Below are positions 41,902-62,275 of a stretch of 64,000 bases of DNA, piece after piece (position 1 is the stretch's first letter; each line of letters starts with the position of its first letter). Source of the stretch: an uncultured Eubacteriales bacterium. GTDB taxonomy: Bacteria; Bacillota; Clostridia; Christensenellales; Aristaeellaceae. A program made the position numbers and the translations under genes. The DNA lies in NCBI GenBank assembly GCA_902764185.1, contig CACWUV010000001.1:12258-76257 (forward strand), given 5' to 3'. A model generated the notes under the pieces. It did no database searches, was not told the DNA's origin, and saw only the letters and a program-made list of their open reading frames with translations.

Positions 41902-42816
41902 TCACCTCCGATGGGCCCGCTTATACTCCGACGGGGTCATGCCTGTGCGCTGGCGGAAGGCATTGATGAAGGAGGACATACTGTGAAAGCCGCTGGCATC
42001 AAAGGCGAAGGACACGCTTTTGCCCTCCTCCAGCAGCCCTTTGGCGTAGCCGATCTTCTGGTTCAGCAGGTATTCCGACAAATGCATGTTGTAGTACTGG
42101 CGGAAGATCCGGCTGACGTATTCCCGGCTGTAATAGAAATGGCTGGCGATATCGGCCACATTCTGGATAGACTGGAAATGCTGATCCACATATTCCCGCA
42201 GGCTGCGGACACTGCCGGGGATATCGGCAATGCGGCTGCTGTTGACGTCAGAATAATGGGCGGCGAGGAAAAACAATTCCAGGATCAGGCTGTATGCCGT
42301 CAGGACGCTGTCGGTCTGCCAGAAGGCCAGGGTGTATTCCAACTGCTGCAGCAGATAGCGGAATTCCGCCAGCTTCTCGGGGCGGACATGATGGAAGGAG
42401 GGCGCCTCCTGGGCAAAGAAGGCGGGCGGCGCGCCGATGCCCAGATCTGAGAAGAACGAAGGCGAAAAATAAAACACATAGCGCTCATAGAGGCCGGCCT
42501 CCAGCAGGCGGGCCGTGTGCTGGCATCCCGGCGGGATCAGCAGGATATCGTCCGGGTGGGGCAGCATCTCCTGATCCGGGGAAACATAGGAAATGCTGCC
42601 GGTCACAAAAATATCCATTTCATAGAAGCTGTGGCTGTGCAGCTTTTCCGGGAAGCTGCTGGCCTCGTACCGGGTGCGGCGGTGGGAAAACAGCAGATGC
42701 CGGCCCACATAAACATCCTCCCAACCCGAAAAGTTCTTGAACTTTTTCAGGCCGGGCTGCTCCGCGTGATCGGGAAAATAAAACCGGGCGATGTGATCCT
42801 GCTGATAATGTTTCAT
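41902..42816 (-). CDS. AraC family transcriptional regulator (cupin sensor + HTH_18)
   Basis: The C-terminal ...IADIASHFYYSREYVSRIFRQYY...GFHSMSSFINAFRQRTGMTPSEYKR is the AraC HTH pair. Confidence 0.88.
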   Translation of the reverse strand: MKHYQQDHIARFYFPDHAEQPGLKKFKNFSGWEDVYVGRHLLFSHRRTRYEASSFPEKLHSHSFYEMDIFVTGSISYVSPDQEMLPHPDDILLIPPGCQHTARLLEAGLYERYVFYFSPSFFSDLGIGAPPAFFAQEAPSFHHVRPEKLAEFRYLLQQLEYTLAFWQTDSVLTAYSLILELFFLAAHYSDVNSSRIADIPGSVRSLREYVDQHFQSIQNVADIASHFYYSREYVSRIFRQYYNMHLSEYLLNQKIGYAKGLLEEGKSVSFAFDASGFHSMSSFINAFRQRTGMTPSEYKRAHRR

Positions 42817-42873
42817 CTGGGAACCTCTGATTGATCACAAATCCATAAATTATAATGCACAGAAAAGAAAAAA

Positions 42874-44763
42874 TTGCAAAATAATGATGATATAATATTG
42901 ATTATAGATAAATTATCCAATTTGTCAAGAAAGGTTGCGAAAAACGTGAACAGCAAACTGACGCTGATTTCGCATGAAGCAGATATATGCGTGGTGGGAG
43001 GCGGCATCGGCGGCATGTTCTCCGCCATTTCCGCCGCCCGCAATGGCGCAAAGGTGGTTTTGATGCAGGATCGGCCCGTGCTGGGCGGCAACGCCAGCTC
43101 GGAGATCCGCATGTGGATCTCCGGCGCGGGCACCCGGGTGCGGGATCTGCAGGAAACCGGCCTGCTGGAAGAGCTGCTGCTGGACAATATGTACCGCAAT
43201 CCCAAGCGCAATTTTTCCATTTGGGACAGCCTGCTCTATGAAAAGGTGCGCTTTGAGCCCAACATCGAGCTGCTGCTCAATTGCAGCTGCTGCGACGCCG
43301 AAATGGCGGGCAGCCGCATCGTTTCAGTGACGGGGTTCCAGCTGACCACCTATCAATGGCACCAGGTGCGGGCGAAGATCTTCATCGATTGCTCGGGGGA
43401 CAGCATCCTGGCCCCCCTCAGCGGGGCGGAATTCCGCGTGGGCCGGGAGAGCAAGGCGGAATTCAACGAGGAATTCGGTCTGGAGGAGGCGGACGGACAC
43501 ACCATGGGCATGAGCATCCTGCTCCAGGCCCGGGAGACCGATCACCCCGTCTCCTACACCCCGCCCGCCTGGGCCTATACCTTCAAAACCGACGAGGAAA
43601 TGAACTTCAAGCCCCACGACCTGTACCAGATCAACACCAACTTTTACTGGATCGAGCTGGGCGGCATGGAGGACAGCATCGGCGACACCGAAAAGGTGCG
43701 GGACGAGCTGCTCAAAATCGCCTTCGGCGTGTGGGATCACATGAAAAACCAGGGCGACCACGGGGCTGAAAACTGGGAGCTGGAGTGGGTGGGCTTTCTG
43801 CCCGGTAAGCGGGAAAGCCGCCGGTACGTGGGCGACTATGTCCTCAACCAGAACGACGTGGAAAACCATCCCGTTTTCCCCGATACCGTGGCCTACGGCG
43901 GCTGGCAGATCGACAATCACCTGCCCGGCGGCTTCCACATGGGCGGCCATGCAGGCAGCCACCTGCAAAAGCGGCGGCTGTCCGAGCCTTACGGCATCCC
44001 CTATCGCTGCCTGTATTCCAGGAACGTCGAAAACCTGATGTTCGCGGGCCGCAACATCAGCACCACCCATCTGGGGCTGAGCACCAGCCGGGTCATGGGC
44101 ACCGTCGGTGTACTGGGCCAGGCGGCGGGTACAGCGGCGGCCATCGCCGTAAGGAACGGCCTCACGCCCCGGGAGGCGGGGCAGCAGCGGATCAGGGAGA
44201 TCCAGGCCCAGCTGATGGAGGACGATTGCTTCCTGCCCGGCTTCCGCCGCCAAATCCCCGAGGTGAGCAAAAACGCCGTCCTTACCTGCGATTACGGGGA
44301 TTGCTCCGCCTTGCACAATGGCCTGGACCGCCGCATCTGGGGCAACGACAACGGATACTTTGGCAAGACCAACAACGCCATCACCTATACCTTCCAGCAG
44401 TCCACCCGCCTGCGCCAGTTCCGGCTGGTGGTGGACAGCGACCTGAACCGGGAATACGTGGAGGGCAACCCCGACGGACTCAACACCTCCTCCGTGCTGT
44501 TCTACCCCCGCAGCTACAACGGCACCACCTTCGGCTTTCCCCAATGCCTGCTCAAGTCCTTCCGCGTGGAGGCCCTGGACGCCGCGGGGCAATGGCAAAC
44601 CGTATACGAGACCCACGAAAACCACCAGCGGCTGGTGCGCCAGGCCATCGACGTGACCACCACGGCCATCCGCCTCATCCCCCTGTCAACATATCAAAGC
44701 GAAAGGAAATGCACGGATTACGGCAGCTCCACCGCGCACATTTTCGCCTTTGATGTGAAATAA
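42874..44763 (+). CDS. FAD-dependent oxidoreductase, class A paralog 1 (FAD_oxidored-like) with C-terminal beta-sandwich-like domain
   Basis: DICVVGGGIGGMFSAISAARNGAKVVLMQDRPVLGGNASSEIRMW (dinucleotide fold) ...IDCSGDS...NWELEWVGFLPGKRESRRYVGDY...RNISTTHLGLSTSRVMGTVGVLGQAAG. The listed start is TTG 42874. GTG 42946 is an alternative. Confidence 0.75.
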   Translation: MQNNDDIILIIDKLSNLSRKVAKNVNSKLTLISHEADICVVGGGIGGMFSAISAARNGAKVVLMQDRPVLGGNASSEIRMWISGAGTRVRDLQETGLLEELLLDNMYRNPKRNFSIWDSLLYEKVRFEPNIELLLNCSCCDAEMAGSRIVSVTGFQLTTYQWHQVRAKIFIDCSGDSILAPLSGAEFRVGRESKAEFNEEFGLEEADGHTMGMSILLQARETDHPVSYTPPAWAYTFKTDEEMNFKPHDLYQINTNFYWIELGGMEDSIGDTEKVRDELLKIAFGVWDHMKNQGDHGAENWELEWVGFLPGKRESRRYVGDYVLNQNDVENHPVFPDTVAYGGWQIDNHLPGGFHMGGHAGSHLQKRRLSEPYGIPYRCLYSRNVENLMFAGRNISTTHLGLSTSRVMGTVGVLGQAAGTAAAIAVRNGLTPREAGQQRIREIQAQLMEDDCFLPGFRRQIPEVSKNAVLTCDYGDCSALHNGLDRRIWGNDNGYFGKTNNAITYTFQQSTRLRQFRLVVDSDLNREYVEGNPDGLNTSSVLFYPRSYNGTTFGFPQCLLKSFRVEALDAAGQWQTVYETHENHQRLVRQAIDVTTTAIRLIPLSTYQSERKCTDYGSSTAHIFAFDVK

Positions 44764-44793: not shown

Positions 44794-46104
44794 ATGAAAA
44801 AGCTGACTGCCATCCTGCTGGCCCTCGTGATGCTGGCAAGCTGCGCCCTGGCCCTGGCCGAAGCGCCGAACACCGAACTGACAGGCGAGATCACCTTCTA
44901 CACCGCCTTTGCCGGCGCCAACGGCACGGACGCCCTGATCGCCCAGTTCAACGAGCTCTACCCCAACGTGAAGGTCAACTACGAAGTGTACAAGAACAGC
45001 TCCGACGGCAACGTGGGCCTGGATACCGCCATCATCGCCGGCGGCCAGGTGGACGTGCTGCTGAGCTTCGGCGTGTCCAACACCGCCAAGCGCTGGCAGA
45101 ACGGCCTGCTGATGGACCTGACCGACCGTCTGGCGGCGGATGGCCTTGACCTGGTGGAAAACTGGGGCACCGACGCCTATCAGTATGAGGGCCGCACCTA
45201 TGTGTTCCCCTCCGGCGGCCTGTCCGTCTACGTGGCCATCAACCTGGACAAGTGGGAAGCTGCCGGTCTGGGCGAGCTGCCCACCGCCTGGACCTGGGAT
45301 GAGTATCTGGCTGCCTGCGAAAAGCTGACTGAGCGCGACGCCGACGGCAAGGTGCTGGTCAACGGCGGCGGCGACTTCAACCAGATCGACTACTGGACCT
45401 ACGCCGTCCGTCAGGCCAAGGGCAAGAACGTATTCTACAACGCCGAAGGTCTGAGCGACTTTGACAATCCCCTGTTTGCCCAGGCGCTGCATCACGAAGT
45501 GGACGCCGCGGCCTCCGGTATCTGGCACTCCAAGGCCGTGTACCAGTCCGACAGCACCCGCTCCCGCAACCTGTTCCTGCAGGGCGAAATCGCCACCACC
45601 ATCGAATCCATCCTGACCCGCTATATCGTGCCCGGCGCCCCCACCTTCCGCATCGGCTATGCTCCCTATCCCACCTTTGAAAAGGATCAGACCAACTACA
45701 TGGCGGGCAGCAACCCCAACTCCTTCATCGCCGTGGCCGCCAACACCCAGTCTCCCGACGCCGCCTATGCCTTCGCCAAATTCGCCGCCACCTACGGCAA
45801 CAAGTACATGTATGCCGCCGGTCACGCCACCACCTGGACGGGCGTGAACCCCGACGAGGTGCTCTCCGTGGTCTTCGGCAGCGAGGAAGAGGCCGCCAAG
45901 TGGGTGGATACCGAGAGCTTCATCCGCTGCGTGGTCGCCGCCGGCGAGCCTGCCTATTCCGAGGATTACATCGTGGCCTACACAGAAATGCAGTCCCTGG
46001 TGGATGAATACACCATGTACGTGCTCAACGGCGAAATGACCGTGGAAGACGCCCTGGCCGAAATGAAGCTGCTGGGCGACGAAGCCATCGAGGACGCCCG
46101 CTGA
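44794..46104 (+). CDS. ABC sugar-binding lipoprotein (CUT1)
   Basis: AAGGAGG RBS, signal peptide plus lipobox MLASC, family-1 SBP pattern. Confidence 0.85.
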   Translation: MKKLTAILLALVMLASCALALAEAPNTELTGEITFYTAFAGANGTDALIAQFNELYPNVKVNYEVYKNSSDGNVGLDTAIIAGGQVDVLLSFGVSNTAKRWQNGLLMDLTDRLAADGLDLVENWGTDAYQYEGRTYVFPSGGLSVYVAINLDKWEAAGLGELPTAWTWDEYLAACEKLTERDADGKVLVNGGGDFNQIDYWTYAVRQAKGKNVFYNAEGLSDFDNPLFAQALHHEVDAAASGIWHSKAVYQSDSTRSRNLFLQGEIATTIESILTRYIVPGAPTFRIGYAPYPTFEKDQTNYMAGSNPNSFIAVAANTQSPDAAYAFAKFAATYGNKYMYAAGHATTWTGVNPDEVLSVVFGSEEEAAKWVDTESFIRCVVAAGEPAYSEDYIVAYTEMQSLVDEYTMYVLNGEMTVEDALAEMKLLGDEAIEDAR

Positions 46105-46177: not shown

Positions 46178-47050
46178 ATGAATAAAAAGCATGAAGCCCT
46201 GGCCGGATGGCTGTTTCTCCTGCCCGCGCTGACCATTTTCGCCGCGCTGGTGGTGCTGCCTGTGATCATGTCCCTGCTTTTGTCCTTTACCGAGTGGAAT
46301 TTCCTCTCGGGTATCCAGGGCATCAGCTGGAAGGGGGTGGCCAACTTCACCCGTCTGTTCACCCGGGATCGAAAATTCATGCTGGCGCTGACCAACACGG
46401 TGTTCTATGCCTTTACCACCGCACCCATCAGCATCGCCATCGGCCTGCTGTTCGCCTTCATGCTCAACGACAAGGTGTACCTGCGCAAGGTGAACCGCAT
46501 GTTCTTCTTCATCCCCTACATTTGCAGCATGGTGGCGCTGGCGGCGGTGTTCCGCTTCCTGTTCCGGGTGGACGGGCCCATCAACGCCGTGGCGGGCGCG
46601 CTGTTTGGCGCCGAGCCCGTTCCCTGGCTCAACCGCACCTCCCTCAACCGTATTCCCGTGGTGTGCGTCATGATCTATGCCGCCACCGGCTACAACCTGA
46701 TCGTGTACATGGCGGCCCTGCAAAACGTGCCCCGGGAGCTGTATGAGGCCGCCATGGTGGATGGCGCGGGCCCCCTGCGCCGGTTCTTCCGCATCACCGT
46801 GCCGCTGATCTCTCCCACCACTTTCTATCTGCTGGTGGTGCGCCTCATCGCCGCCTTCAAGGCCTTCTCCGCCCTGAACATCATGGGCGTGAGCAAAACA
46901 GCCCCCAGCCTGGTGACCGAGATCTACTCCAACGCCTTTGACTCCTACAAGTTTGGCTACGCCAGCGCCGAGGCCTGGGTGCTGGTGGCTGTGATCCTGG
47001 TGATCACCCTGATCCAGATGGTGGGCCAGAAAAAATGGGTGCATTACTGA
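46178..47050 (+). CDS. ABC sugar permease (MalF/UgpA-type)
   Basis: 6 TM. GWLFLLPALTIFAALVVLPVI... N-terminus and an EAA-loop region ...YEAAMVDGAGPLRRFFRITVPL. Confidence 0.88.
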   Translation: MNKKHEALAGWLFLLPALTIFAALVVLPVIMSLLLSFTEWNFLSGIQGISWKGVANFTRLFTRDRKFMLALTNTVFYAFTTAPISIAIGLLFAFMLNDKVYLRKVNRMFFFIPYICSMVALAAVFRFLFRVDGPINAVAGALFGAEPVPWLNRTSLNRIPVVCVMIYAATGYNLIVYMAALQNVPRELYEAAMVDGAGPLRRFFRITVPLISPTTFYLLVVRLIAAFKAFSALNIMGVSKTAPSLVTEIYSNAFDSYKFGYASAEAWVLVAVILVITLIQMVGQKKWVHY

Positions 47051-47066: not shown

Positions 47067-47897
47067 ATGAAACGCAAATTGATCTGGATCCGCACCGTAA
47101 ACACCCTTTGGGTCACGGCCATCGGCATCCTGTTTTTGATGCCGCTGCTGTGGATGCTGTCCTCCTCCCTGAAAACCGGGCCCGAGGTGTTCGCCGCCAA
47201 CTTCCGTTGGATACCGGACAAGGTGCAATGGATCAACTATGCCCAGGTATGGACTCACGAGCGGGTGCCCTTCTGGCGGCTGTACGGCAATTCGCTGTTC
47301 ATCGCCGTGGTGAGCACGGTGGGCGAATTGATCGTGGCCTCCATGGCGGGGTATTCCCTGGGCAAGATCGAGTTCAAGGGCCGCAACCTTGTGTTTATCG
47401 TCATGCTGGTCACCATGATGATCCCGGCTCAGGCCACCATCGTGCCGCGTTTTGTGATCTTCAAATCCATGGGGCTGTACAACAACATCTGGGCGCTGAT
47501 CTTTCCCGCCTGGTTCAACGTGACCTCCATCTTCCTGCTGCGCACCTTCTACATGAGCCTGCCAGGCGATCTGATGGAGGCGGCCAAGATCGACGGGGCC
47601 AGCTATTTCCAGATCTGGCTGCGCATCATGATGCCCCTGACCAAGCCCGCCATGGTGACGGCGGCGGTGCTGGCCTTTATCAATTCCTGGAACGAGTACC
47701 TGAGCGCCCTGGTGTTCCTGCCCACGGCGGAAAACTACACCGTGTCCCAGGGCATCCAGTATTGGATGTCCATGTCCGATGATCACAATCTGATGATGAC
47801 CGCGGCGGCCAGCGCCATCCTGCCCGTCATCGTGCTGTTCCTGTTTACCCAGCGGTATTTTGTGGAGAGCATCGCCACCACAGGCGTGAAGGGATAA
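47067..47897 (+). CDS. ABC sugar permease (MalG/UgpE-type)
   Basis: ...LMEAAKIDGASYFQIWLRIMMPLTKPA (EAA loop). 6 TM. Confidence 0.88.
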   Translation: MKRKLIWIRTVNTLWVTAIGILFLMPLLWMLSSSLKTGPEVFAANFRWIPDKVQWINYAQVWTHERVPFWRLYGNSLFIAVVSTVGELIVASMAGYSLGKIEFKGRNLVFIVMLVTMMIPAQATIVPRFVIFKSMGLYNNIWALIFPAWFNVTSIFLLRTFYMSLPGDLMEAAKIDGASYFQIWLRIMMPLTKPAMVTAAVLAFINSWNEYLSALVFLPTAENYTVSQGIQYWMSMSDDHNLMMTAAASAILPVIVLFLFTQRYFVESIATTGVKG

Positions 47898-47901
47898 AGC
47901 A

Positions 47902-48603
47902 ATGGATGTACGATTGATCGCCCACCGGGGCTATGCCATTCATGCGCCGCAGAACAGCGCCGAGGCCTTTGAGGCGGCGGGCAGGCTGGGCTTCTGGGCC
48001 ATAGAGACCGACGTGCGCCGAACCCTGGACGGGGTGCTGGTATGCTGCCATGACGCCACGGTGGACAGCATGTTCTGCGGCAGCGGGGAGATCAGCGCCC
48101 TGCCCTGGGACGCGCTGCGGAGCCTGACCTTCCGGGAGGACAAGAAAAACGGCAGCCTCCGCAAGGAGGGCATGCCGCTGTTCCGTACCTATCTGTCCAT
48201 TTGCAAGGCCCATGGCGCTGTGCCCTTCATTGAGCTGAAAACCATGGACACGGAGGCCGTGCTGGCCGAAGCCCGGCAGTTTTTTGACGATGGCGAGCTG
48301 GTGATCTCCAGCTCCCGTATGGAACACCTGCGCCTGGCCCGCCGCCTGTCTCCCGCCGTGTTTCTGCATCATATTTTCTCAGACGAGGCCTCCATCCGGG
48401 AGCTGGCGGGCATGGGGCCCGCAGGCTGCTCCCTGAATCAGCCCGATCTGAACGCCTTTGATCCCGCCTGGGTGGGGCGTGTCCATGCTTGCGGGCTGCA
48501 ATTGTGCCTGCGTGCCGGGGATACCCCCGACGCCGTGCGGCGCATGGTCGCCCTGGGACTGGATTACGTGCCCACCAATTGCGTTTATCCGGCGCTGGTG
48601 TAA
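47902..48603 (+). CDS. Cytoplasmic glycerophosphodiester phosphodiesterase family protein (UgpQ-like)
   Basis: LIAHRGYAIHAPQNSAEAFEAAGRLGFWAIETDVRRTLDGVLVCCHD is the GDPD catalytic N-terminus. No signal peptide. Confidence 0.8.
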   Translation: MDVRLIAHRGYAIHAPQNSAEAFEAAGRLGFWAIETDVRRTLDGVLVCCHDATVDSMFCGSGEISALPWDALRSLTFREDKKNGSLRKEGMPLFRTYLSICKAHGAVPFIELKTMDTEAVLAEARQFFDDGELVISSSRMEHLRLARRLSPAVFLHHIFSDEASIRELAGMGPAGCSLNQPDLNAFDPAWVGRVHACGLQLCLRAGDTPDAVRRMVALGLDYVPTNCVYPALV

Positions 48604-48659: not shown

Positions 48660-50285
48660 TCAGATCTTCAGCCGTTCCATTACGTCATTTCCGCCCCGGC
48701 CAAAGTAATCCGACAGCGCTTTGTATTCCCGGTAGAGCGCGTCATACACCGCGCCCGCCGTGGGATCTGGGGTATACCGGATAAAGTCCCGGCAGTGCAT
48801 GGCGTCCACGGCGGCAAAGATATCCGAAAAGCCCGTGGCGTGCCCTGCCGCAGCGGCGGCGTAGATGGCCGCACCCAATGCAGGAGCTTGCCTGCAGCGG
48901 CTGACGCGCAGGGGCTTGCCCAGCACGTCGGCGTAGATCTGCATCATCAGGGGATTTTTGCCGGCGATGCCGCCGCAGGCGGTAAGGCTCTGCACCCGGA
49001 CCCCGGCCTGCTCATAGGCCTCCAGAATGGCCCGGGCCCCGAAGGCGGTGGCCTCCAGCAGCGCCCGGAAGATATGCTCCGGGCGGGTTTGCAGCGTCAG
49101 CCCCAGCATCAGGCCGGACAGACGGCTGTTGGCCAGGGGCGATTTGTTGCCGTTGAACCAGTCCAGGGCCAGCAGCCCCGTCTCCCCGGGGGCCAGGCCC
49201 GCGGCCAGCTGGCTCAGATAGGCCTGGGGCGTCAGCCCCGCTTCCCGGGCTGCCCGAGCGTAATCCTCCGGCAGCCCGTTGTCCGCGAACCATTGGAAGC
49301 AATCTCCCACGCTGGCCTGTCCCGAGGCATAGCCCCACAGGCCCGGATAATAGGTATCCGGCAGGCAGGCCGTAACGCCCTGCACCGGGCGTCGTTCGCT
49401 GTTTAACAGCATAAAGGCCGTGGAGGTACCGATCACCAGCATGGCCTGGCCCGGCGAGTGGATTCCCAGGGCTGCCATGGGCGTGTAGCCGTCCATCTGC
49501 GCCGGGGTCACGGCGATGCCGGGCCGCAGACCCAGGCGCCGTGCCATGGGCGCGCACAGCGTCCCCGCCAAGGTGCCGGGGGCCAGGGGCGTGACGCCCC
49601 AGCGATCCGCCATGCAGCGCCTCGGCAGATCGCCCAATACGCCTGCGTACCCTGCCTTGCTCCACAGCGCCTTGGCGGCGGCCATGGAAGCGCTGATCAC
49701 CGGTTTGCCCGCCAGCAGCGAAACGATGTAATCCCCGGCCTCCACAAAGGCGTCCGCCGCGTTGAACACGGCGCGATCCTCCTCATATACCTGCAGCACC
49801 TTGGCCGCCAGGCACTCCGGCGAAATGCGTCCGCCGTACAGGGCCAGATCGACGCCCTGCTCCCGGCAAAGGGCCGTGAGACGCTCCGCCTGGTCCGCCG
49901 CGCCGTGATGCTTCCATAGCTTGCACCAGGCGTGGGGCCGTCCGGCAAAGGCCGCATCCAGGCACAGAGGCCGAAAAGCGGCGTCCACCGGGAGCACCGT
50001 ACTGGCGGTGAAATCCACGCCGATGCCCGCCACCTGCTCCGGGGATACGCCGCTTTGTTTCAATAAAGCAGGCACCACCGTTTCCAGCGCCTGCACATAG
50101 TCCGCGGGATGCTGCAAATACCAGCTGCCTGTCAGCTTCGTGCCGTCCGGCAGGGCATGCTCCAGGATCCCATGCGGATAGGCCAATTCCGCCTCCGCCG
50201 CCACGCTGCCGTCCAGGGCCGCCAGCACGCCCCGGCAGCTCAGAGAGCCGTAATCCAGGCCGATGGTATAAAGCGCCTCACCCAT
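48660..50285 (-). CDS. araB: Ribulokinase-type FGGY kinase (AraB-like)
   Basis: YTIGLDYGSLSCRGVL...LQHPADY...GVDFTASTVLPVD...CKLWKHHGA parallels Gram-positive AraB. The true substrate is not certain. Confidence 0.7.
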   Translation of the reverse strand: MGEALYTIGLDYGSLSCRGVLAALDGSVAAEAELAYPHGILEHALPDGTKLTGSWYLQHPADYVQALETVVPALLKQSGVSPEQVAGIGVDFTASTVLPVDAAFRPLCLDAAFAGRPHAWCKLWKHHGAADQAERLTALCREQGVDLALYGGRISPECLAAKVLQVYEEDRAVFNAADAFVEAGDYIVSLLAGKPVISASMAAAKALWSKAGYAGVLGDLPRRCMADRWGVTPLAPGTLAGTLCAPMARRLGLRPGIAVTPAQMDGYTPMAALGIHSPGQAMLVIGTSTAFMLLNSERRPVQGVTACLPDTYYPGLWGYASGQASVGDCFQWFADNGLPEDYARAAREAGLTPQAYLSQLAAGLAPGETGLLALDWFNGNKSPLANSRLSGLMLGLTLQTRPEHIFRALLEATAFGARAILEAYEQAGVRVQSLTACGGIAGKNPLMMQIYADVLGKPLRVSRCRQAPALGAAIYAAAAAGHATGFSDIFAAVDAMHCRDFIRYTPDPTAGAVYDALYREYKALSDYFGRGGNDVMERLKI

Positions 50286-56764: not shown

Positions 56765-57808
56765 TCAGCGCGTCAAAACGCTGTCTCTATACACCATATA
56801 CGGCGGAACGCTGATGTTTTTCACCGGGCGCTCCGGCTCCCGGATGCGCGCCAGCAGGCATTGGGCCGCCTGCCGCCCCATCTCCTCCTTGCGGATGTTG
56901 ACGCTGGTCAGCGCCGGGATGGCGTAGCCGCACACCGAGGAATCCTCATAGGCGATGATGGACAGCTGATCCGGTACCCGCACGCCGATTTCGTACAGAT
57001 ACCGCATGGCGCCCAGGGCGCTTTGGCCATTGGCTGCCACGATGGCGTCCGGGCGGTTGCCCGCCTCCCAGAAGGCGCGGAAGGCACGGTAGGCGCTGGC
57101 GCCGTTGTTGGAGGTGGACTGGATGTTCCATTTTTCCCGGAAGGGCGTCCCCGCCTCCTCCAACGCCTTGCGGAAGGCCTCCAGGCGCAGATTGCGGGTG
57201 TCCAGCTGGGCGGAACAATTGAGCAGGCAGATGTTTTGATGGCCTGTATTCAGCATATCCCGCATGGCCAGGGCGACGCCTTCGCCGGGATCGGCGTAGA
57301 TGGAATCGAACTCCTCCTCAAAGCAGCCCACGCCCACCAGCACAAAGGGCAGTCCCGTGTCCCGCAGGGCGTTGAGAAACTCCATGCTGTAAGGCCGCGC
57401 CACCACGAACAGGCCGTCCACCCGCTTTTCGGTGACCACCCGGGGCAGGGTAGGGGCGTCCGGGCTGCAAACGAAGTTTTCGGTGATCAGGCCGTAATCC
57501 GTCCCCGCCAGGCCCGCCATGATGCCGTTGAAAATATTGAAAGAGCACAGACCCACGTGCTGGTCGCTGTCATAGGAGACCTGGGTGCTGTTGTGCAGAT
57601 AATCCTTCATAAAAATGACGCCCAGGTTGTTGGTCACCCGGGCGGACAGCCCCCGGGCGTTGCTGTTGGGCACATAGTTGATCTCGTGGATTACCTGCTC
57701 CACCAGGCGGCGGGTGTCCTCCTTGACCAGCTTGCTGTGATTGAGCACCAGAGAAACCGTGCTGCGGGAAACGCCGGCGCGCTTGGCGACATCATTGATG
57801 GTAGGCAA
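56765..57808 (-). CDS. LacI family transcriptional regulator
   Basis: TTG start behind GGAGGG. PTINDVAKRAGVSRSTVSLVLN is the HTH, followed by a periplasmic-binding-fold sugar sensor. Confidence 0.9.
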   Translation of the reverse strand: MPTINDVAKRAGVSRSTVSLVLNHSKLVKEDTRRLVEQVIHEINYVPNSNARGLSARVTNNLGVIFMKDYLHNSTQVSYDSDQHVGLCSFNIFNGIMAGLAGTDYGLITENFVCSPDAPTLPRVVTEKRVDGLFVVARPYSMEFLNALRDTGLPFVLVGVGCFEEEFDSIYADPGEGVALAMRDMLNTGHQNICLLNCSAQLDTRNLRLEAFRKALEEAGTPFREKWNIQSTSNNGASAYRAFRAFWEAGNRPDAIVAANGQSALGAMRYLYEIGVRVPDQLSIIAYEDSSVCGYAIPALTSVNIRKEEMGRQAAQCLLARIREPERPVKNISVPPYMVYRDSVLTR

Positions 57809-58052: not shown

Positions 58053-59378
58053 ATGATGGAGCAGCTTCAAGGCAGCTATCCCCATACCTATGACGTGATC
58101 GTGGCAGGCGGCGGGCCTGCGGGCGTGGCCGCAGCCGTTTCCGCCGCCCGGCTGGGAGCCAAAACCGCCCTGGTGGAGCGCTTCGGCGTGCTGGGCGGCA
58201 TGCTGACCTCCGGCCATGTGCAGCCCATCCTGGGCCGGGCGGAGGCCCATACCATGTACGACGAGATCGTGGCCCTTCTGCGGGAGGGGCACCCGGACGC
58301 GCCCCGCGTCAAGACCCGCAACGGCGACGAGATCGGCCTGGATCTGGAGGAAGCCAAGCTGCGGCTGCTGGATCTGTGCCTGAAAAACGGCGTATGCGTG
58401 TACCTGCAAACCCCGGTGGTGGCCCCCGTCCTGGAGGGCAAGCGCGTCACCGGCCTGCAGATCTGCACGCCTCAGGGTCTTGAGACCCTTGCTGCCCGCG
58501 CCGTGGTGGACGCCACCGGCGACGGCTTTGTGGCTGCCCTGGCGGGGGCGCCCTATGAAGTGGGCCGCGCCGACGGCCGCTGTCAGCCCGCCACCCTGGA
58601 ATTCACCGTGGACAATGTGGACGAAGGCCCCCATTTCGCCTGCTATGGCGGCAGCGACCCCGTAACCTTGCCCGACGGGCGCAAATACAGCCAGGTGTGC
58701 AAGGAGGCCTGCGCCCGGGGCGAGCTGCCGGAGAACGTCAGCATCGTGCGCATCCATTACACCCTGCATCCGGGCGAGCGCAGCATCAACGCCACCCAGG
58801 CCAACGGCTTTGACACCCTGACGCCCGAAGGCGCGGTGGGGGCGGAGTATCTGCTGCGGCGGCAGGTGGAGCCCATTCTGGCCTTCCTGCGCAAATACGC
58901 GCCGGGCTTTGCAAACTGCCGCCTGCGCTCCACCGCCACCGCCCTGGGCGTGCGGGAAAGCCGCCGGTTCGTGGGGGAATACGTGCTTTCCGACCAGGAC
59001 GTGGAAAAGGGCGCGCACTTTCCCGACGTGGTGGTGCACAAGGCCTGGTTCCTGATCGATATTCACAATCCCGCCGGCGGCGGCCAGGCGGAACGGCATT
59101 CCCAGCCCGCCGAGCCCTACGACATCCCCTACCGCAGCCTGGTGCCCCTGGAGGTGGACGGCCTGCTGCTGTCGGGCCGCAACATCTCCGGCACCCATCG
59201 GGCCCACGCCTCCTATCGGGTGATGGGCGTGGCTCTGGCCACCGGCCAGGCCGCGGGCGTCGCCGCCGCCCTCAGCGCCCGACAGGATGCAACGCCCCGG
59301 CAGCTGGATTATCATTTGGTTCAGCAGGCCCTGATGAATTACGGCGCGCGGCTGTTTGACGAGGAGGCGCGGGCATGA
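58053..59378 (+). CDS. FAD-dependent oxidoreductase, class B paralog 2
   Basis: Start MMEQLQG behind GAGAGAGGG. DVIVAGGGPAGVAAAVSAARLGAKTALVERFGVLGGMLTSG...VDATGDG...GVRESRRFVG...SGRNISGTHRAHASYRVMGVALATGQAAG. Confidence 0.8.
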   Translation: MMEQLQGSYPHTYDVIVAGGGPAGVAAAVSAARLGAKTALVERFGVLGGMLTSGHVQPILGRAEAHTMYDEIVALLREGHPDAPRVKTRNGDEIGLDLEEAKLRLLDLCLKNGVCVYLQTPVVAPVLEGKRVTGLQICTPQGLETLAARAVVDATGDGFVAALAGAPYEVGRADGRCQPATLEFTVDNVDEGPHFACYGGSDPVTLPDGRKYSQVCKEACARGELPENVSIVRIHYTLHPGERSINATQANGFDTLTPEGAVGAEYLLRRQVEPILAFLRKYAPGFANCRLRSTATALGVRESRRFVGEYVLSDQDVEKGAHFPDVVVHKAWFLIDIHNPAGGGQAERHSQPAEPYDIPYRSLVPLEVDGLLLSGRNISGTHRAHASYRVMGVALATGQAAGVAAALSARQDATPRQLDYHLVQQALMNYGARLFDEEARA

Positions 59379-60061
59379 AGGATCAGCAGCGCATTCTATG
59401 CTACGGCGATTCCAACACCTGGGGCACCATCGGGCGCTGGAAGCAGACCGAAATGCCCTCCGAACGCTATGACCGGGACACCCGCTGGACCCAGGTGGCC
59501 CAGCGCGTCCTGGGGCCGGATTATTGCGTCATTGAGGAGGGGCTGGGCGGCCGCACCACCATCTATGCCCGGGCCGAGGAGCCCTGGAAATGCGGGGAAA
59601 CCTATCTGCTGCCCTGCTTGCACAGCCAGCGCCCCCTGGACTGGGTGGTGCTGATGCTGGGCACCAACGACCTGCAGGTGTGCAAGACCATCACGGCGGA
59701 GGATCTGCCCCGGGGCATCAGCCGCCTGATCGATATCATTCAGGCCTGCCCCAAGGTGGGGCGGAACATGACCGTGCCCCGCATTCTGGTGGTGGCGCCG
59801 CCGGAGGTGCGCCCCTCCGATCCCCGGGGCCGCACGGAGGTCTACGCCAAATTCCGCTGCGGGATCGGGCGATCCCTCAGCCTGCAATTTCCGGCGATAT
59901 ACGCAGAGGTCGCCCGGCAGAAGGGCTGCTATTTTCTCAACGGTCAGGACTACATCCAGCCGGGGCCGCAGGACGGCGTGCATTTGGACGCCGCCTCCCA
60001 TCGGCGGCTGGGGGAGGCCATCGCCGCCTTTATCCAAAAGCACGGGGAGGATGCGCCATGA
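59375..60061 (+). CDS. SGNH/GDSL hydrolase (esterase/acyltransferase-like)
   Basis: RILCYGDSNTWG (block I Ser), IEEGLGGRTT (block II) and MLGTNDL (block III). 4-nt overlap with the upstream gene. Confidence 0.8.
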   Translation: MKDQQRILCYGDSNTWGTIGRWKQTEMPSERYDRDTRWTQVAQRVLGPDYCVIEEGLGGRTTIYARAEEPWKCGETYLLPCLHSQRPLDWVVLMLGTNDLQVCKTITAEDLPRGISRLIDIIQACPKVGRNMTVPRILVVAPPEVRPSDPRGRTEVYAKFRCGIGRSLSLQFPAIYAEVARQKGCYFLNGQDYIQPGPQDGVHLDAASHRRLGEAIAAFIQKHGEDAP

Positions 60062-60975
60062 GTGCGAACATACGGGACGGCAGCGCCAGCACGCTGTATA
60101 TGAAATTTGATAAGATCCTGCGCTCCGCCCAGGGCATGGCCATCTGGCAGGATCGGGCCTTTATCCTCTACGACACCGGCATGTGCGGCGTGTACGACCT
60201 GAAAAGCCGCACCGCCGCGCCCCTGGCCTCCTTCCCCCTGGGCAGCTACAACGAGGGCACGCCTGCTCGGGATTATCTGAACCACGCCAACCATTGCATG
60301 TTCGGCTCCCTGCACTGGGGCGATAACCCCATCCCTCTGCTCTACGTCACTGTGGGTACAGGCATCGGGGCGGACGCGGACGGGTACTATTACCGGCTCA
60401 GCGTGGAAAACATCGTGGAGACGGCGGCGGGTTACCGGGCGGAGGTGCTGCAGACCGTCACCTATCAGCCCTCGGAAAGCGTGCCCGCGCCCTGGGAGGC
60501 TCCCTGCTGGGGCTGTCCGGCCTTTTTTGTGAACAACGAGGAAAAGGCCCTGTATATTTTCTCCGCCCGCTACCGCACCAAGCGCGGCTGCGTGCCAGAG
60601 GGGGAGCATAACGCCTACATCATCACCCGTTTTGATCTGCCCTCTCTGGACGCCGGCCCCCTGGTGCGGCTCACCGCCCGGGATATCCGGGATCAGTTCA
60701 GTGTGGAATCCGATATTCCCTTCACCCAGGGCGGGCAGATGACGGACGGCATCCTGTATTACACCTTCGGCTGTCCCAAGGCTGATTATCCCGTGCACGT
60801 GATGGCCTTCGACCTGCGCAAAAAATGCCTGCTGTGGCAGGCGGGCAATATGGATGAGGCATTCCAGGGCGAGGAGATCGAATGCTGCGACTGGTACCAG
60901 GGGCAGCTGCTGTGCAACACCAACGGCGGCAGCCTGTATGCCCTGCGTTTTCGGGAGGAGGCGCAAGATGGCTGA
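60058..60975 (+). CDS. Hypothetical protein (~305 aa), repeated beta-strand-rich blocks (propeller-like?)
   Basis: ATG 60058 overlaps the SGNH stop (ATGA). Blocks recur: AFILYDTGMCGVYDL, LLYVTVGTG, ALYIFSARY, GILYYTFGCP, GQLLCNTNGGSLYAL. No family was recognised. Confidence 0.55.
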   Translation: MSANIRDGSASTLYMKFDKILRSAQGMAIWQDRAFILYDTGMCGVYDLKSRTAAPLASFPLGSYNEGTPARDYLNHANHCMFGSLHWGDNPIPLLYVTVGTGIGADADGYYYRLSVENIVETAAGYRAEVLQTVTYQPSESVPAPWEAPCWGCPAFFVNNEEKALYIFSARYRTKRGCVPEGEHNAYIITRFDLPSLDAGPLVRLTARDIRDQFSVESDIPFTQGGQMTDGILYYTFGCPKADYPVHVMAFDLRKKCLLWQAGNMDEAFQGEEIECCDWYQGQLLCNTNGGSLYALRFREEAQDG

Positions 60976-62275
60976 GGTTTTGCGGCAGTCGCGGGATGTG
61001 CCCGTGACCGCGTACTGTGACGTGGCGGTGATCGGCGGCGGCCCGGCAGGGGTGGCTGCGGCTGTTTCCGCCGCCCGCGCCGGCAAGCGCACGGTGCTGG
61101 CAGAGCGCCTGGGCGTGCTGGGCGGCGCCGCCGTGGGCTATGTGAACCCCATCAGCGGCTTTTTTCAGCAGGGGCAGCGGGTGGTGGGCGGCATCGCCTG
61201 GGAGTTTGTCCAGCGCCTGCAGGCGCTGGGCGCCGCGCAGATCGAATACCCCAAGGGCCACGTATCCTTCCACCCCGAAGCCTGGAAGCTGGTGGCCCAG
61301 CGCATGGTTCTGGAGAGCGGCGTGGAGCTGATGACCAACATGACCCTGAGCGACTGCGCGCGCGAGGGCGCGCGTGTGACCTACGTGATCCTGGACGGCA
61401 AAAGCGGTCCCGAGGCCGTGGACGCCCGCTGCTTCATTGACGCCACGGGAGACGCGGACCTGTGCCGCCTGGCCGGGGCGGAGATGCTGCCGGAGGCGGG
61501 GGAGGGCTATCAGCCCGCTTCCCTGTGCTTCGTGCTGGAGGGGGTGGACGTGACCACCCCGCTGCTCAAAAACTGCATCCATCACACCGGCGCGGGGGGC
61601 TCCCATTCCGCCAACGACACCATCCATGCCTATCTGGACGCCTGCGTGGAGCGGGGAGAGCTGGAGCAGTTTGGCGGCCCCTGGTTCAACACCATGGTGC
61701 AGGGCGGCGCGGTGACGGTCAATGTGACCCGCCAGGGCGGCAACGGAGCAGACCGCAGGGAGCTGACCCGCATGGAATGCCAGCTGCGGGAGGACATGTT
61801 CCGCATCGTGGCGCTGCTCAAAAGGGAGTATCCCGAATTCCGTTCGTGCAGCATCGCCGCCTCCGGCATCAACGCGGGCATCCGGGAAACCGGGCGGATC
61901 CGCGGCCTGGACACCGTGACCGGGGAGGATATGCTTTCCGCCCGGCCCTGGCCCTGCCCCGTGGCCCGGTGCGCCCATCCCATGGACGTTCATTATGCCT
62001 GCTCCTCCGCCCAGACGGTGGATTACTATGCCAGCGCCGCCTACGTGCCCCATACGGCCCTGATCCCCCGGGGAGCGCAATCCCTGCTGGCCGCCGGGCG
62101 CTGCGTCTCCGCCGACGCCCGGGCTTATGCCACCCTGCGGGTGCAGGCCACCGTCATGGCCATCGGCGAATCCGCCGGGCTCATGGCGGCGGAGCTCTGT
62201 GACCACGGGGAGATCGATCCCCAGCGCCTTCGGACGGCCATTCGGCAGCGGGGCGTGATCCCCGCGGGAATGTGA
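60968..62275 (+). CDS. FAD-dependent oxidoreductase, class B paralog 3
   Basis: ATG 60968 overlaps the upstream gene by 8 nt. DVAVIGGGPAGVAAAVSAARAGKRTVLAERLGVLGGAAVG...IDATGDAD...GIRETGRIRG...AGRCVSADARAYATLRVQATVMAIGESAG. Confidence 0.8.
   Translation: MAEVLRQSRDVPVTAYCDVAVIGGGPAGVAAAVSAARAGKRTVLAERLGVLGGAAVGYVNPISGFFQQGQRVVGGIAWEFVQRLQALGAAQIEYPKGHVSFHPEAWKLVAQRMVLESGVELMTNMTLSDCAREGARVTYVILDGKSGPEAVDARCFIDATGDADLCRLAGAEMLPEAGEGYQPASLCFVLEGVDVTTPLLKNCIHHTGAGGSHSANDTIHAYLDACVERGELEQFGGPWFNTMVQGGAVTVNVTRQGGNGADRRELTRMECQLREDMFRIVALLKREYPEFRSCSIAASGINAGIRETGRIRGLDTVTGEDMLSARPWPCPVARCAHPMDVHYACSSAQTVDYYASAAYVPHTALIPRGAQSLLAAGRCVSADARAYATLRVQATVMAIGESAGLMAAELCDHGEIDPQRLRTAIRQRGVIPAGM

Follow-up and report, generated by a model that had tools for sequence, protein, structure and literature searches.

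A glycosidase-free nutrient-uptake island of gut and rumen Clostridia combines PF12831 flavoproteins with a predicted beta-propeller, an esterase, a phosphodiesterase and a ribulokinase-like kinase

Analysis of a 64,000-nucleotide window from an uncultured Clostridia genome revealed a gut/rumen Clostridia island for nutrient uptake that combines FAD-dependent enzymes of family PF12831 (FAD_oxidored) with a beta-propeller, an esterase, a phosphodiesterase and a ribulokinase-like kinase, without a glycosidase. The PF12831 genes are interleaved with two CUT1 importers, a GDPD, an AraB-like kinase, an SGNH esterase, AraC and LacI regulators and a protein that a preliminary description of this DNA had left unassigned (Table 1). 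The gene inventory in that description was borne out by Pfam: the five flavoproteins lie where it had placed them and match FAD_oxidored over the full model, and each of two paralogous CUT1 systems has one SBP_bac_1 protein and two BPD_transp_1 permeases, with no ATPase gene for either among the island genes. As also claimed there, no island protein matched a GH or PL Pfam family, and Pfam found no ETF, ferredoxin or cytochrome gene within the island. Our best, though tentative, reading is that the island serves cytoplasmic salvage of acylated polyol-phosphate glycoconjugate fragments, in which the flavoproteins would carry out the bond-labilising or oxidising steps.

Table 1. Features of the island in window coordinates. 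Gene calls of the source contig (L041) were mapped to the window by an offset of 50057.
Feature	Position	Strand	Evidence
AraC-family regulator, module 1	41902..42816	-	HTH_18, HTH_AraC, AraC_binding
FadA1, class A PF12831 with C-terminal beta-rich domain	42946..44763 (probable start)	+	PF12831 5.4e-86; weak F5/8 type C at C-terminus
CUT1 solute-binding lipoprotein, module 1	44794..46104	+	SBP_bac_1 6.6e-30; N-terminal lipobox
ABC permease 1a	46178..47050	+	BPD_transp_1; 50% identity to permease 2a
ABC permease 1b	47067..47897	+	BPD_transp_1; 52% identity to permease 2b
Cytosolic GDPD, UgpQ-like	47902..48603	+	PF03009 9.3e-24; no signal peptide
AraB-like FGGY kinase	48660..50285	-	NF003154 ribulokinase, 539 bits
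FadA2, class A PF12831	50278..52032	-	PF12831 1.6e-91
ABC permease 2b	52051..52917	-	BPD_transp_1
ABC permease 2a	52902..53822	-	BPD_transp_1
CUT1 solute-binding protein, module 2	53900..55255	-	SBP_bac_1 1.2e-20
FadB1, class B PF12831	55363..56742	-	PF12831 4.7e-125
LacI-family regulator, module 2	56765..57808	-	LacI + Peripla_BP_3
Two near-palindromes TTTAGATCG(A/T)TCCAAA	57925..58029	.	Divergent lacI/fadB2 intergenic region
FadB2, class B PF12831	58053..59378	+	PF12831 3.1e-109; orthologues in related loci
Predicted SGNH esterase/acyltransferase, MsAcT type	59375..60061	+	Lipase_GDSL_2 5.3e-15
Predicted five-bladed beta-propeller ("unassigned protein")	60058..60975	+	305 aa; Shine-Dalgarno present
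FadB3, class B PF12831	60968..62275	+	PF12831 3.8e-87
RpiR-family regulator, module 3	62868..63704	-	HTH_6 + SIS (Pfam)
First permease of module 3, cut by window end	63857..64000	+	Gene call L041 13800-14693

The island had been described as one 20-kb unit; its gene content stood, but it consists of at least three regulons (AraC, LacI and RpiR, modules 1 to 3), each conserved separately, that run past position 62275 and, on the source contig, past the window end. There, genes for two permeases, a 490-aa protein, AP_endonuc_2 and two PF12831 proteins (one class A, one class B) come after the RpiR gene, bringing the full island to at least seven PF12831 genes and a xylose-isomerase-like TIM barrel. 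Module 1 duplicates the FadA2 and ABC genes of module 2 at ~50% identity (48% between the two solute-binding proteins), and the PDB relatives of the module 2 solute-binding protein are distant sugar-binding ones only (best 5F7V, 1.6e-9). Neighbourhood mining, which the preliminary description had proposed, showed that the modules recur in gut metagenomes and uncultured Clostridia, many of the source genomes coming from herbivore guts. AraC-FadA1-ABC-GDPD, or FadA1-GDPD alone, was found in gut metagenomes, and LacI-FadB1-ABC-FadA2-kinase / FadB2-SGNH-propeller-FadB3 in ~30 uncultured Clostridia species; the propeller-flavoprotein and FadA1-GDPD linkages are both conserved. No GH was among the families recurring around the propeller gene in 36 species-level loci of uncultured Clostridia, and some related loci carry accessory SDR, Zn-ADH and 2-hydroxyacid dehydrogenase genes.

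The five flavoproteins score 290, 308, 419, 367 and 294 bits against the full PF12831 model (cut-off 27 bits), share 27-51% identity with one another and lack signal peptides. The class A pair, FadA1 and FadA2, is 51% identical; relative to FadB1, the four others share 27-36% identity in a five-way alignment. The sequence motifs first quoted for the set proved approximate in this alignment, with GGGPSG and AIRVM in FadB1, IDATGDA, RVQ and GESAG in FadB3, and MDCSGDS in FadA2. The extra beta-rich C-terminal domain ascribed to class A is present, with weak matches only (F5/8-type-C, DUF7402, CBM_AftD), but the start given for FadA1 has to be revised: the TTG at 42874 of the mechanical ORF is disfavoured, and the gene probably begins at the GTG at 42946, as in the public gene call (605 aa).

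FadB1 is the most conserved member of the system, with orthologues of ~459 aa (72-99% identity) plentiful in gut metagenomes, and FadA2 orthologues in related loci score 682-1355 bits. In other Clostridia families the paralogues each have a separate orthologue of high score, and the flavoproteins are therefore old and non-redundant. PF12831 is a two-domain FAD fold, and the best PDB matches to the FadB1 AF2 model (pLDDT 95.5) reached TM-scores of ~0.5, to flavin halogenases, monooxygenases and geranylgeranyl reductase. Searches by sequence and profile, and the fold comparison suggested earlier, found no close solved structure for PF12831 in the PDB. Consistent with the earlier statement that no characterised pathway has this composition, none turned up, and neither did a functional study of PF12831 in the literature. 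Elsewhere, PF12831 genes also occur within GH-rich loci of Paenibacillus and Bacteroides, among GH130, GH2, GH43 and GH88, and therefore the family is no general GH replacement. In Paenibacillus they adjoin SGNH esterases and GH130, in Microvirga they form a minimal LacI-ABC-PF12831 operon, and in Pararhizobium one has a monosaccharide-type ABC system on one side and a four-carbon acid-sugar kinase on the other; a CBM9 is fused to a PF12831 protein outside the island class A set.

In module 1, the AraC gene is divergent to FadA1 in 13 related metagenome loci, and GDPD adjoins FadA1 orthologues in 11, five with the full AraC-FadA1-ABC-GDPD set and six compact, with GDPD directly downstream or nothing recognised between. 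GDPD is thereby tied tightly to the class A flavoprotein FadA1, and is confined to module 1. A kinase directly follows GDPD in three loci (L066, L068 and L073), with the canonical AraB motif GYEAGQ in L066 and L073, and one related locus has an additional 1006-aa GDPD-containing protein. The module resembles Ugp-type salvage (UgpB-AE and cytosolic UgpQ/GlpQ, then FAD-dependent glycerol-3-phosphate oxidation) in having a single operon for a CUT1 solute-binding protein, two permeases and a GDPD that lacks a signal peptide, and in conserving a flavoprotein beside the GDPD. Unlike that system, its flavoprotein is PF12831 with a CBM-like tail rather than DAO-family GlpD, GlpO or GlpA, a ribulokinase instead of a glycerol kinase follows the GDPD, the regulator is of AraC type and the ATPase lies outside the operon.

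In module 2, lacI is the first gene before FadB1 in most related loci. The near-palindrome TTTAGATCG(A/T)TCCAAA matches the window at its two copies there and nowhere else, chance alone predicting 0.02 matches, and recurs beyond the island in the closest relatives only; we take the copies to be candidate LacI operators. The SGNH gene start overlaps the fadB2 stop, and propeller then FadB3 is a gene order found in many related loci. CUT1 importers, esterase, propeller and up to four different flavoproteins form translationally coupled operons under one LacI, which speaks for a pathway of several steps on a single complex substrate. The SGNH protein, nearest in the PDB to 7BXB (1e-36) and the aryl esterase 2Q0Q (3.5e-32), is assigned by homology to the small-acyl esterase/acyltransferase type.

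The kinase gene closes the LacI operon, with an 8-nt overlap with fadA2. Its product is a close AraB homologue (3QDK, E 4.6e-146) that passes the NF003154 cut-off (428 bits) but not that of TIGR01234 (517 versus 583 bits). Three of the four L-ribulose ligands listed for AraB (PMC4880283) are retained (Ala96, Lys208 and Asp274), and the fourth, Glu329, is changed to Ala. The sugar pocket is thus altered relative to AraB, and of 15 kinases encoded in related loci 14 have likewise lost Glu329; only a canonical AraB-type second copy in L006 keeps it. The island shares with pentitol catabolism (ribitol/arabinitol dehydrogenase plus ribulokinase/xylulokinase) and the L-arabinose operon araBAD an AraB-family kinase as the committed phosphorylating step, but AraA, AraD, an NAD-dependent pentitol dehydrogenase and the Glu329 ligand are missing, and flavoproteins hold the dehydrogenase position.

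The previously unassigned protein is, as modeled, a new five-bladed propeller, encoded by the signature gene of the system. A 461-aa mechanical ORF was rejected in favor of the 305-aa gene, which has a Shine-Dalgarno sequence. No Pfam family matched above threshold, and no GH family even at E = 1. The AF2 model (pLDDT 91.3) is all-beta, and its best PDB folds are glutaminyl cyclases (2IWA/3NOK; best TM-scores 0.55-0.64) and the phage phi11 RBP platform (5EFV; TM ~0.53), with no GH among the 50 best fold matches. Glutaminyl-cyclase-like propellers as a group are 10-13% identical to it at TM 0.5-0.64, and PF21311, the phi11 platform family, is matched below threshold by 20 of the 52 family members (best E 5e-4). 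The phi11 RBP recognises GlcNAc on wall teichoic acid, and its platform domain, itself closest to bacterial glutaminyl cyclase, is proposed to hold that GlcNAc (PMC4901313). Unlike these best fold matches, the island protein stands free in the cytoplasm and has a conserved cluster of His, Glu and Arg; His76, Arg113, Glu117, Glu273 and Glu275 are invariant in both propeller clades, and the cluster looks like an active site, suggesting catalysis. A longer relative of the propeller, P0155, has an N-terminal SGNH domain and is probably fused to an esterase.

The sister clade of the propeller is found in Bacteroidales (hhalign probability 100%, E 8.6e-45), where it adjoins CDP-polyol / polyol-phosphate transferase genes in 7/7 independent capsule contexts. 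Its neighbours encode an IspD/TarI-type or CTP_transf_like cytidylyltransferase, an SDR/epimerase-family reductase and a TagF-like Glyphos_transf or LicD transferase. The island propeller is thus homologous to an integral neighbour of CDP-polyol/polyol-phosphate cassettes (TarI/TarJ, AbpA/AbpB, TagF/TarL, LicD) in capsule loci; those cassettes are biosynthetic and lack a PF12831 gene, whereas the island layout of importers, kinase and esterase is catabolic.

The FadA1-GDPD pairing, the CDP-polyol kinship of the propeller and the separate modules point to microbial polyol-phosphate glycoconjugates rather than an acylated plant glycoside, so that of the "glycoside or polyol" substrate first proposed, the polyol option gains support. 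The likeness of the propeller fold to the phi11 RBP platform, the AraB homology of the kinase and the small-acyl type of the SGNH protein also speak for this reading. The strictly anaerobic, uncultured gut/rumen hosts would use the island as a set of cytoplasmic salvage modules for small, partly O-acylated glycoconjugates that combine a phosphodiester with a polyol, probably a pentitol, and that other bacteria's teichoic acids or polyol-phosphate capsules would release. The two CUT1 importers would take up the fragments with a shared ATPase encoded elsewhere, the cytosolic GDPD would cleave the phosphodiester (module 1) and the MsAcT-type esterase would strip acyl groups (module 2). The propeller may work on the polyol-(phosphate) part, since its relatives belong to CDP-polyol / polyol-phosphate-transferase cassettes. 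Each PF12831 flavoprotein would oxidise a sugar or polyol hydroxyl, yielding a ketose directly or priming an adjacent glycosidic or phosphoester bond for elimination, a route that would take the place of the absent glycoside hydrolases, and AraB-like kinases would phosphorylate the pentulose-type product for the pentose-phosphate pathway. With no electron-transfer partner encoded and anaerobic hosts, the flavin may cycle within one turnover, redox-neutrally; NAD+ cycles in this way in GH4 and GH109. The substrate class, all flavoprotein and propeller catalytic steps and the redox-neutral cycle are conjecture, and if correct would mean polyol-phosphate salvage by chemistry not yet described.

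Several observations run counter to this salvage reading. Neither a phosphodiesterase nor a phosphatase is encoded in the conserved LacI module, the propeller resembles the phage domain only below threshold, and teichoic-acid units usually carry amino sugars, for which the island has no genes. Closest to the preliminary description, in which the flavoproteins do the primary chemistry, is a reading in which the same enzymes would instead degrade an imported acetylated plant or host oligosaccharide or glycoside, with PF12831 proteins as glycosidase surrogates (ring-hydroxyl oxidation, then elimination; one paralogue per linkage) and the propeller as an esterase accessory. This would fit a sugar-locus layout without GH, the Microvirga operon, whose architecture is usual for LacI-ABC-GH, and the Paenibacillus neighbourhood. 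The CUT1 binding proteins, the CBM-like class A domains and the CBM9 fusion suit ordinary oligosaccharides equally, the GH-rich Paenibacillus and Bacteroides loci suggest plant or host glycans, and the herbivore-gut origins point the same way, all at the expense of polyol-phosphate salvage. Module 3 adds AP_endonuc_2, the fold of known 3-keto-glycoside lyases, beside two PF12831 genes, as in oxidation-elimination routes (Gfo/Idh/MocA or GMC oxidoreductase with a xylose-isomerase-like lyase; DgpA/DgpBC, CarA/CarBC); with these, and with GH4, GH109 and GH188, the island shares a redox-cofactor enzyme that replaces or assists hydrolysis. It differs in using the PF12831 family, for which the activity is predicted only, and in a conserved core without a lyase, as AP_endonuc_2 is absent from the conserved LacI module. 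We consider oligosaccharide degradation rather unlikely: it leaves unaccounted for the FadA1-GDPD pairing, the propeller's CDP-polyol kinship and a pentulose kinase as sole sugar-activating enzyme, and we know of no flavoprotein of PF12831 fold that cleaves glycosides.

GDPD beside a flavoprotein could also simply mean glycerol-3-phosphate oxidation, a further point against salvage of complex fragments. Alternatively, the island might be a patchwork in which small operons independently serve free polyols, sugar acids or glycerophosphodiesters, its PF12831 proteins being ordinary dehydrogenases (pentitol to pentulose, glycerol-3-phosphate to DHAP) that pass electrons to an acceptor encoded elsewhere, with no unusual bond cleavage. 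Three regulators with separately conserved modules, the Pararhizobium locus, canonical AraB after GDPD in two loci and polyol-dehydrogenase-type accessory genes are consistent with such a patchwork, and mycoplasmas similarly have GlpQ plus an FAD-dependent glycerophosphate oxidase. We judge it unlikely, given the coupled LacI operons, the lack of an acceptor gene nearby and the CBM-like domain of class A enzymes; strict anaerobes also normally use NAD-linked polyol dehydrogenases. More doubtful still is that glycoside hydrolysis is hidden, with the propeller a highly divergent five-bladed GH or phosphorylase (GH43/GH130-like), or with secreted GHs elsewhere depolymerising the substrate and flavoproteins tailoring the released sugars. 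The five-bladed propeller is common among GHs and phosphorylases, the Paenibacillus GH130-PF12831-SGNH order mirrors propeller-PF12831-SGNH, and the invariant residues are active-site-like, but the Pfam and fold searches for GHs described above argue against this, as does the sister clade, whose setting beside nucleotide-polyol genes is biosynthetic and not degradative.

The cluster at 41.9-62.3 kb is a catabolic island of the substrate-specific kind. It is made up around PF12831 and a small beta-propeller family, both uncharacterised: no paper, structure or curated family was found that assigns either of them a reaction. Five PF12831 genes lie where the preliminary description had placed them, with full-length FAD_oxidored matches in Pfam (E 5e-86 to 5e-125; 290-419 bits against a cut-off of 27; model positions 1-416). 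The rest of its inventory also stood: AraC and LacI regulators, two SBP_bac_1 solute-binding proteins (SBPs) and two BPD_transp_1 permeases with each, without an ATPase gene, a GDPD, an FGGY kinase and an SGNH esterase. One gene start, the position of an unassigned gene (here called the propeller) and the quoted motifs needed small corrections. The AraC, LacI and RpiR regulators and two complete sets of SBP plus two permeases supply the regulation and dedicated transport of a Gram-positive polysaccharide utilisation locus. Such a locus also holds at least one glycoside hydrolase (GH) or polysaccharide lyase (PL), and no Pfam domain of either kind was found in any island protein, in agreement with the GH absence first described.

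The window has a G+C content of ~62%, and the 17 genes of the region have plausible Shine-Dalgarno sequences in all cases but FadA1. Module 2 consists of a minus-strand operon, lacI-fadB1-sbp2-perm-perm-fadA2-kinase, and a plus-strand operon, fadB2-sgnh-propeller-fadB3, which diverge from a 245-bp spacer and are each translationally coupled, because their genes overlap. The lacI/fadB2 spacer contains two copies of TTTAGATCG(A/T)TCCAAA, which has no other match in the window (0.02 expected by chance); these are candidate LacI operators, and the motif is not kept outside the closest relatives. Module 1, in which araC precedes fadA1-sbp1-perm-perm-gdpd, is a ~50%-identical duplicate of the fadA2-ABC part of module 2. 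Genes beyond the window were read from a matching 109.9-kb ENA metagenome contig, where a third module begins with RpiR, which brings the PF12831 genes of the island to at least seven and its regulons to three. The 490-aa protein of module 3 has no Pfam match, and its AP_endonuc_2 protein, a xylose-isomerase-like TIM barrel (5.5e-29), adjoins two PF12831 genes just outside the window. The remainder of the window, housekeeping genes and a giant GT84/GH94-like gene, lies outside the system.

Locations of features, in window coordinates unless another sequence is named
Feature	Location	Details
Second FGGY kinase	955-2664	within 955-3867
Type I phosphodiesterase/nucleotide pyrophosphatase-family protein	2836-3867	within 955-3867
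BspA-type leucine-rich-repeat protein	8330-9643	LRR_5, 9e-69; 42% GC
Four SBP_bac_3 domains fused to ABC permease domain	14644-18519	1291 aa
ABC ATPase	18512-19603	
Cyclic beta-1,2-glucan-synthase-like gene	32380-39256	two ORFs, different frames, overlap 34820-35214
Low-GC stretch between glucan gene and island	40226-41900	49% GC; small SWIM-like and AAA_14/DUF4143-like genes
Kinase of module 2 (AraB-like FGGY)	48660-50285 (-)	
Propeller	60058-60975 (+)	305 aa
RpiR regulator gene, module 3	62868-63704	matching ENA metagenome contig
Module 3 after RpiR	ENA contig	two permeases, 490-aa protein, AP_endonuc_2, 624-aa class A PF12831, class B PF12831
Sister-clade propeller, ~280 aa	L054 11962-12744; L055, L057, L058, L060, L061, L062	Bacteroidales capsule loci
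GH130 - PF12831 - SGNH - sialate-O-acetylesterase-like (SGNH)	L052 8661-13540	Paenibacillus cellulositrophicus plasmid, behind CUT1 importer
GDPD-containing protein, 1006 aa	L065 2851-5868	GDPD domain at residues 604-831; beside AraC-FadA1-ABC-GDPD module

The PF12831 paralogues carry the N-terminal GxGxxG dinucleotide-binding motif and, at the C-terminus, the GR..S and G.AAG blocks of a predicted flavin-binding helix; G21-G23, G26, G400-R401 and G427 are invariant both among the five and in an 89-member family alignment, and a Rossmann beta-alpha-beta unit opens the AF2 model of FadB1 (pLDDT 95.5). The two class A proteins (584 and 605-629 aa) share 51% identity and have an additional C-terminal domain of ~150 aa, while the three class B proteins (435-459 aa) are 30-33% identical to one another. 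Weak matches of the additional domain to F5/8 type C, DUF7402 and CBM_AftD suggest that it is probably a galactose-binding-like beta sandwich. None of the five proteins has a signal peptide. Seven positions away from the FAD motifs are candidate substrate-site residues: D174, R327 and P384, invariant in the 89 members, and E328, R330, D361 and H363, nearly so.

Foldseek comparison of the FadB1 model with the PDB (entries to April 2026) returned no TM-score above ~0.57; the nearest folds were flavin halogenases and monooxygenases, geranylgeranyl reductase and fumarate reductase, overlapping chiefly in the FAD domain. Sequence and profile searches of the PDB with FadB1, FadA2 and the 89-sequence profile matched other flavoproteins in the common Rossmann part alone, and NCBIfam gave only N-terminal sub-threshold matches. 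No functional paper or solved structure for any PF12831 member was found in the literature on PF12831, FAD_oxidored, flavin-dependent glycosidases and FAD oxidoreductases of polysaccharide utilisation loci; a xanthan-locus preprint mentions an FAD oxidoreductase with its family unstated. FadB1 nevertheless has thousands of homologues, forming 2,067 clusters (50% identity) at E <= 1e-30 in an exhaustive HMMER search. Those of ~459 aa with 72-99% identity are common in gut metagenomes under the sole name 'FAD-dependent oxidoreductase', and source names of homologues are generic.

Elsewhere, PF12831 is the sole enzyme in a LacI-ABC operon of Microvirga, adjoins an acid-sugar kinase in Pararhizobium, stands between GH130 and SGNH genes on the Paenibacillus cellulositrophicus plasmid and lies inside a GH2/GH130/GH88/GH43 locus of Bacteroides finegoldii; from these contexts the family is clearly carbohydrate-associated, yet not restricted to GH-free settings. 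The gene order on the Paenibacillus plasmid parallels the propeller-PF12831-SGNH arrangement of the island. Two homologues are fusions, P0379 with an aminoglycoside-3-N-acetyltransferase-like (AAC(3)-like) domain and P0314 with a CBM9-like domain, a hint of amino-sugar and glycan substrates for other members. PF12831 is very large and present in carbohydrate loci from Rhizobia to Bacteroides, yet we found no close structure and no assigned reaction. Its members are the sole enzymes of this island that are candidates for its core chemistry, which makes the island well suited to finding out their function.

The propeller has no Pfam match above threshold. Its AF2 model (pLDDT 91.3) is all-beta and comes closest, in the PDB, to five-bladed glutaminyl cyclases (2IWA and 3NOK, TM 0.51-0.64) and to the platform domain of a phage receptor-binding protein, that of phi11 (5EFV, TM 0.53). 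The phi11 platform domain, in turn, has bacterial glutaminyl cyclase as its nearest match and is proposed to hold the GlcNAc of wall teichoic acid (PMC4901313). Its Pfam family, PF21311, gave sub-threshold matches in 20 of 52 propeller family members (best E 5e-4), and Foldseek comparison with viral models gave generic propeller matches only. The family is small (225 matches, all hypothetical) and includes two longer relatives: P0155 (531 aa), whose N-terminal SGNH domain makes it look like an SGNH-propeller fusion, and P0149 (515 aa), without a Pfam match.

A tblastn search of plasmid-labelled records detected one distant homologue (31% identity), in Parabacteroides distasonis. Its gene belongs to a capsule locus and immediately precedes one for an IspD/TarI-type cytidylyltransferase. 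The same locus encodes an epimerase-family reductase, a ribulose-phosphate 3-epimerase and two TagF-like glycerophosphotransferase-family proteins. This sister clade has 46 matches, many abundant in gut metagenomes, and all six further independent contexts contain an adjacent cytidylyltransferase (IspD or CTP_transf_like), an SDR/epimerase reductase and Glyphos_transf or LicD. A cytidylyltransferase-reductase-transferase set is of the type that makes and transfers CDP-activated polyols, examples being CDP-ribitol, made via TarI/TarJ, and CDP-D-arabinitol, made via AbpA/AbpB. The role of AbpA is cited in PMC10118250. The sister-clade propeller is an unannotated member of CDP-polyol cassettes. 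Profile-profile comparison joins the two clades with 100% probability (E 8.6e-45), and Q25, G26, M27, H76, N78, R113, E117, Q132, Q224, G225, E273 and E275 (numbering of the window protein) are invariant in both. Homology of the clades, together with the sister-clade gene contexts, ties the propeller family to polyol-phosphate chemistry in two unrelated phyla.

Scanning one genome per GTDB species placed the propeller family in 36 loci, all from uncultured Clostridia (Christensenellales, Oscillospiraceae, Lachnospiraceae and relatives) of the rumen, other animal guts and the human gut. The nearest is in rumen MAG RUG12722 (95% identity). In ~30 of the 36, the propeller gene is accompanied by orthologues of FadB1, FadB2, FadB3, FadA2, LacI, the SBP, the permeases, the SGNH esterase and the kinase, and the minimal version of module 2 is lacI-fadB1-sgnh-propeller. 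Each PF12831 paralogue of the window finds its own high-scoring orthologue in the related loci, so the paralogues are old and non-redundant. Clustering of the remaining neighbours in the 36 loci yielded no recurrent GH family; the recurrent additional genes were only DUF624, MatE, an ABC exporter, SDR, 2-hydroxyacid dehydrogenase, PfkB and Zn-ADH, in 3-8 loci each. Module 1 is conserved separately from module 2. In a metagenome scan for FadA1, a GDPD gene was found nearby in 11 of 24 loci, five with the full FadA1-SBP-permease-permease-GDPD order (L063, L065, L066, L068, L073) and six in compact FadA1-GDPD forms (L074, L076, L077, L082, L083 and L067, the last with an AraC gene in reverse orientation and two ORFs of weak permease similarity between FadA1 and GDPD). 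A kinase directly follows GDPD in three loci, two of which (L066, L073) have the canonical AraB motif. The human-gut locus L065 adds to its module 1-type genes an AP_endonuc_2 protein, two SDRs and a 1006-aa GDPD-containing protein that may release imported fragments.

The module 2 kinase is closely related to 3QDK, the L-ribulokinase of Bacillus halodurans (E 4.6e-146), scoring above the NF003154 cut-off and below that of TIGR01234. L-ribulose is bound in 3QDK by Ala96, Lys208, Asp274 and Glu329 (PMC4880283). The island kinase keeps the first three and has Ala in place of Glu329, so its substrate is probably ribulose-like but not L-ribulose itself. Of 15 kinases in related loci, 14 have Ala, Ser or Gly at this position; a second, AraB-type copy in L006 is the exception and keeps Glu. 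No AraA isomerase or AraD epimerase domain occurs among the island genes, and with Glu329 lost as well, the island does not belong to the araBAD type. In module 1, SBP, permeases and GDPD share a strand and are spaced 4-74 nt apart, the operon of a CUT1 importer with a cytosolic GDPD, in an order conserved in related loci. The GDPD matches at family level only (PF03009; NF006989 at 75 bits, below its cut-off of 264); lacking a signal peptide, it is UgpQ-like and predicted to be cytosolic. The nearest solved relatives of the SGNH esterase are the MsAcT-type aryl/acetyl esterases and acyltransferases 7BXB and 2Q0Q. SBP ligands could not be deduced from the PDB, where the matches were distant sugar SBPs only.

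Among known systems, module 1 resembles Ugp/UgpQ salvage to which an unfamiliar flavoprotein has been added. The general idea is shared by oxidation-elimination routes and NAD+-assisted glycosidases, but their defining enzyme families are absent, so the island belongs to neither. The 3-keto-glycoside pathway uses a Gfo/Idh/MocA or GMC 3-oxidoreductase, and the island has no GFO_IDH_MocA or GMC domain. That pathway also uses a xylose-isomerase-like TIM-barrel lyase; a protein with this type of fold, AP_endonuc_2, occurs in module 3 and L065, and modules 1 and 2 lack it. C-glycoside cleavage, sulfoquinovose, Amadori compounds, galactolipid head groups and xanthan side chains were also considered and dropped, as no gene supported them.

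From gene context, we infer both the substrate and all chemistry. Our tentative reading is that the substrates are polyol- and phosphodiester-containing glycoconjugates, such as teichoic acid or polyol-phosphate capsule units. It draws on the conserved pairing of FadA1 with GDPD, on the absence of any GH and of activating enzymes other than ribulokinase-type kinases, on a small-acyl esterase, and on a propeller that is kin to CDP-polyol cassette proteins and, weakly, to a teichoic-acid-binding phage domain. The Clostridia lineages hosting the island are strict anaerobes, and no electron-transfer partner is encoded in it, which makes attractive a flavin that would cycle within one turnover and labilise a neighbouring bond. 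A somewhat less likely but viable alternative, close to the original proposal, is that the flavoproteins are GH surrogates acting on an acylated plant or host glycoside. The CBM-like domains speak for it, as do the AP_endonuc_2 protein of module 3 and the GH-rich loci in which PF12831 occurs elsewhere.

A mosaic of ordinary dehydrogenase operons is an unlikely account of the island. It seems quite improbable that a GH is hidden, either as the propeller itself or among enzymes encoded elsewhere. There is no GH among the 50 best PDB fold matches of the propeller, and its only Pfam match at E <= 1 is PF21311, with no match to GH43, GH130 or related GH propellers. Distinctly unlikely, too, is the broadest proposal, that PF12831 is a large but unrecognised cofactor-assisted bond-breaking class with redox-neutral FAD that replaces GHs in anaerobes, and the propeller a new polyol-phosphate enzyme. 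Glycosyl-polyol, glycosidic or polyol-phosphate linkages would then be cleaved by oxidation-elimination, and Bacteroidales capsule biosynthesis and the scavenging of teichoic acid or capsule by Clostridia would share the propeller.

The island merits experimental follow-up. If its substrate is polyol-phosphate glycopolymer debris, it would show by what route gut anaerobes recycle teichoic acids and capsules, which form a large nutrient pool that is poorly mapped. The new propeller family, also present in Bacteroidales capsule loci, would in that case gain a function. A flavin that is redox-neutral in bond cleavage would be a new mechanistic class in carbohydrate enzymology.

Other features of the window were recorded in passing. 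The giant cyclic beta-1,2-glucan-synthase-like gene has weak GT2, DUF3131, Glycoamylase/GH144-like and GH94 domains; its two ORFs correspond to a single 2309-aa gene on the matching ENA contig, and the split may reflect a frameshift, a difference in assembly or variation between strains. A link between this gene and the island was rejected because unrelated low-GC genes intervene and related loci lack it. Possibly, the intervening stretch is what remains of a mobile or defence element and marks the left border of the island. The BspA-type gene, in a segment of strikingly low GC, was probably acquired horizontally, and the 1291-aa protein, followed by an ABC ATPase, is predicted to be an unusual fused amino-acid-type importer. 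Near the start of the window, the second FGGY kinase adjoins the phosphodiesterase/pyrophosphatase-family protein, another kinase-phosphodiesterase pairing in this genome.
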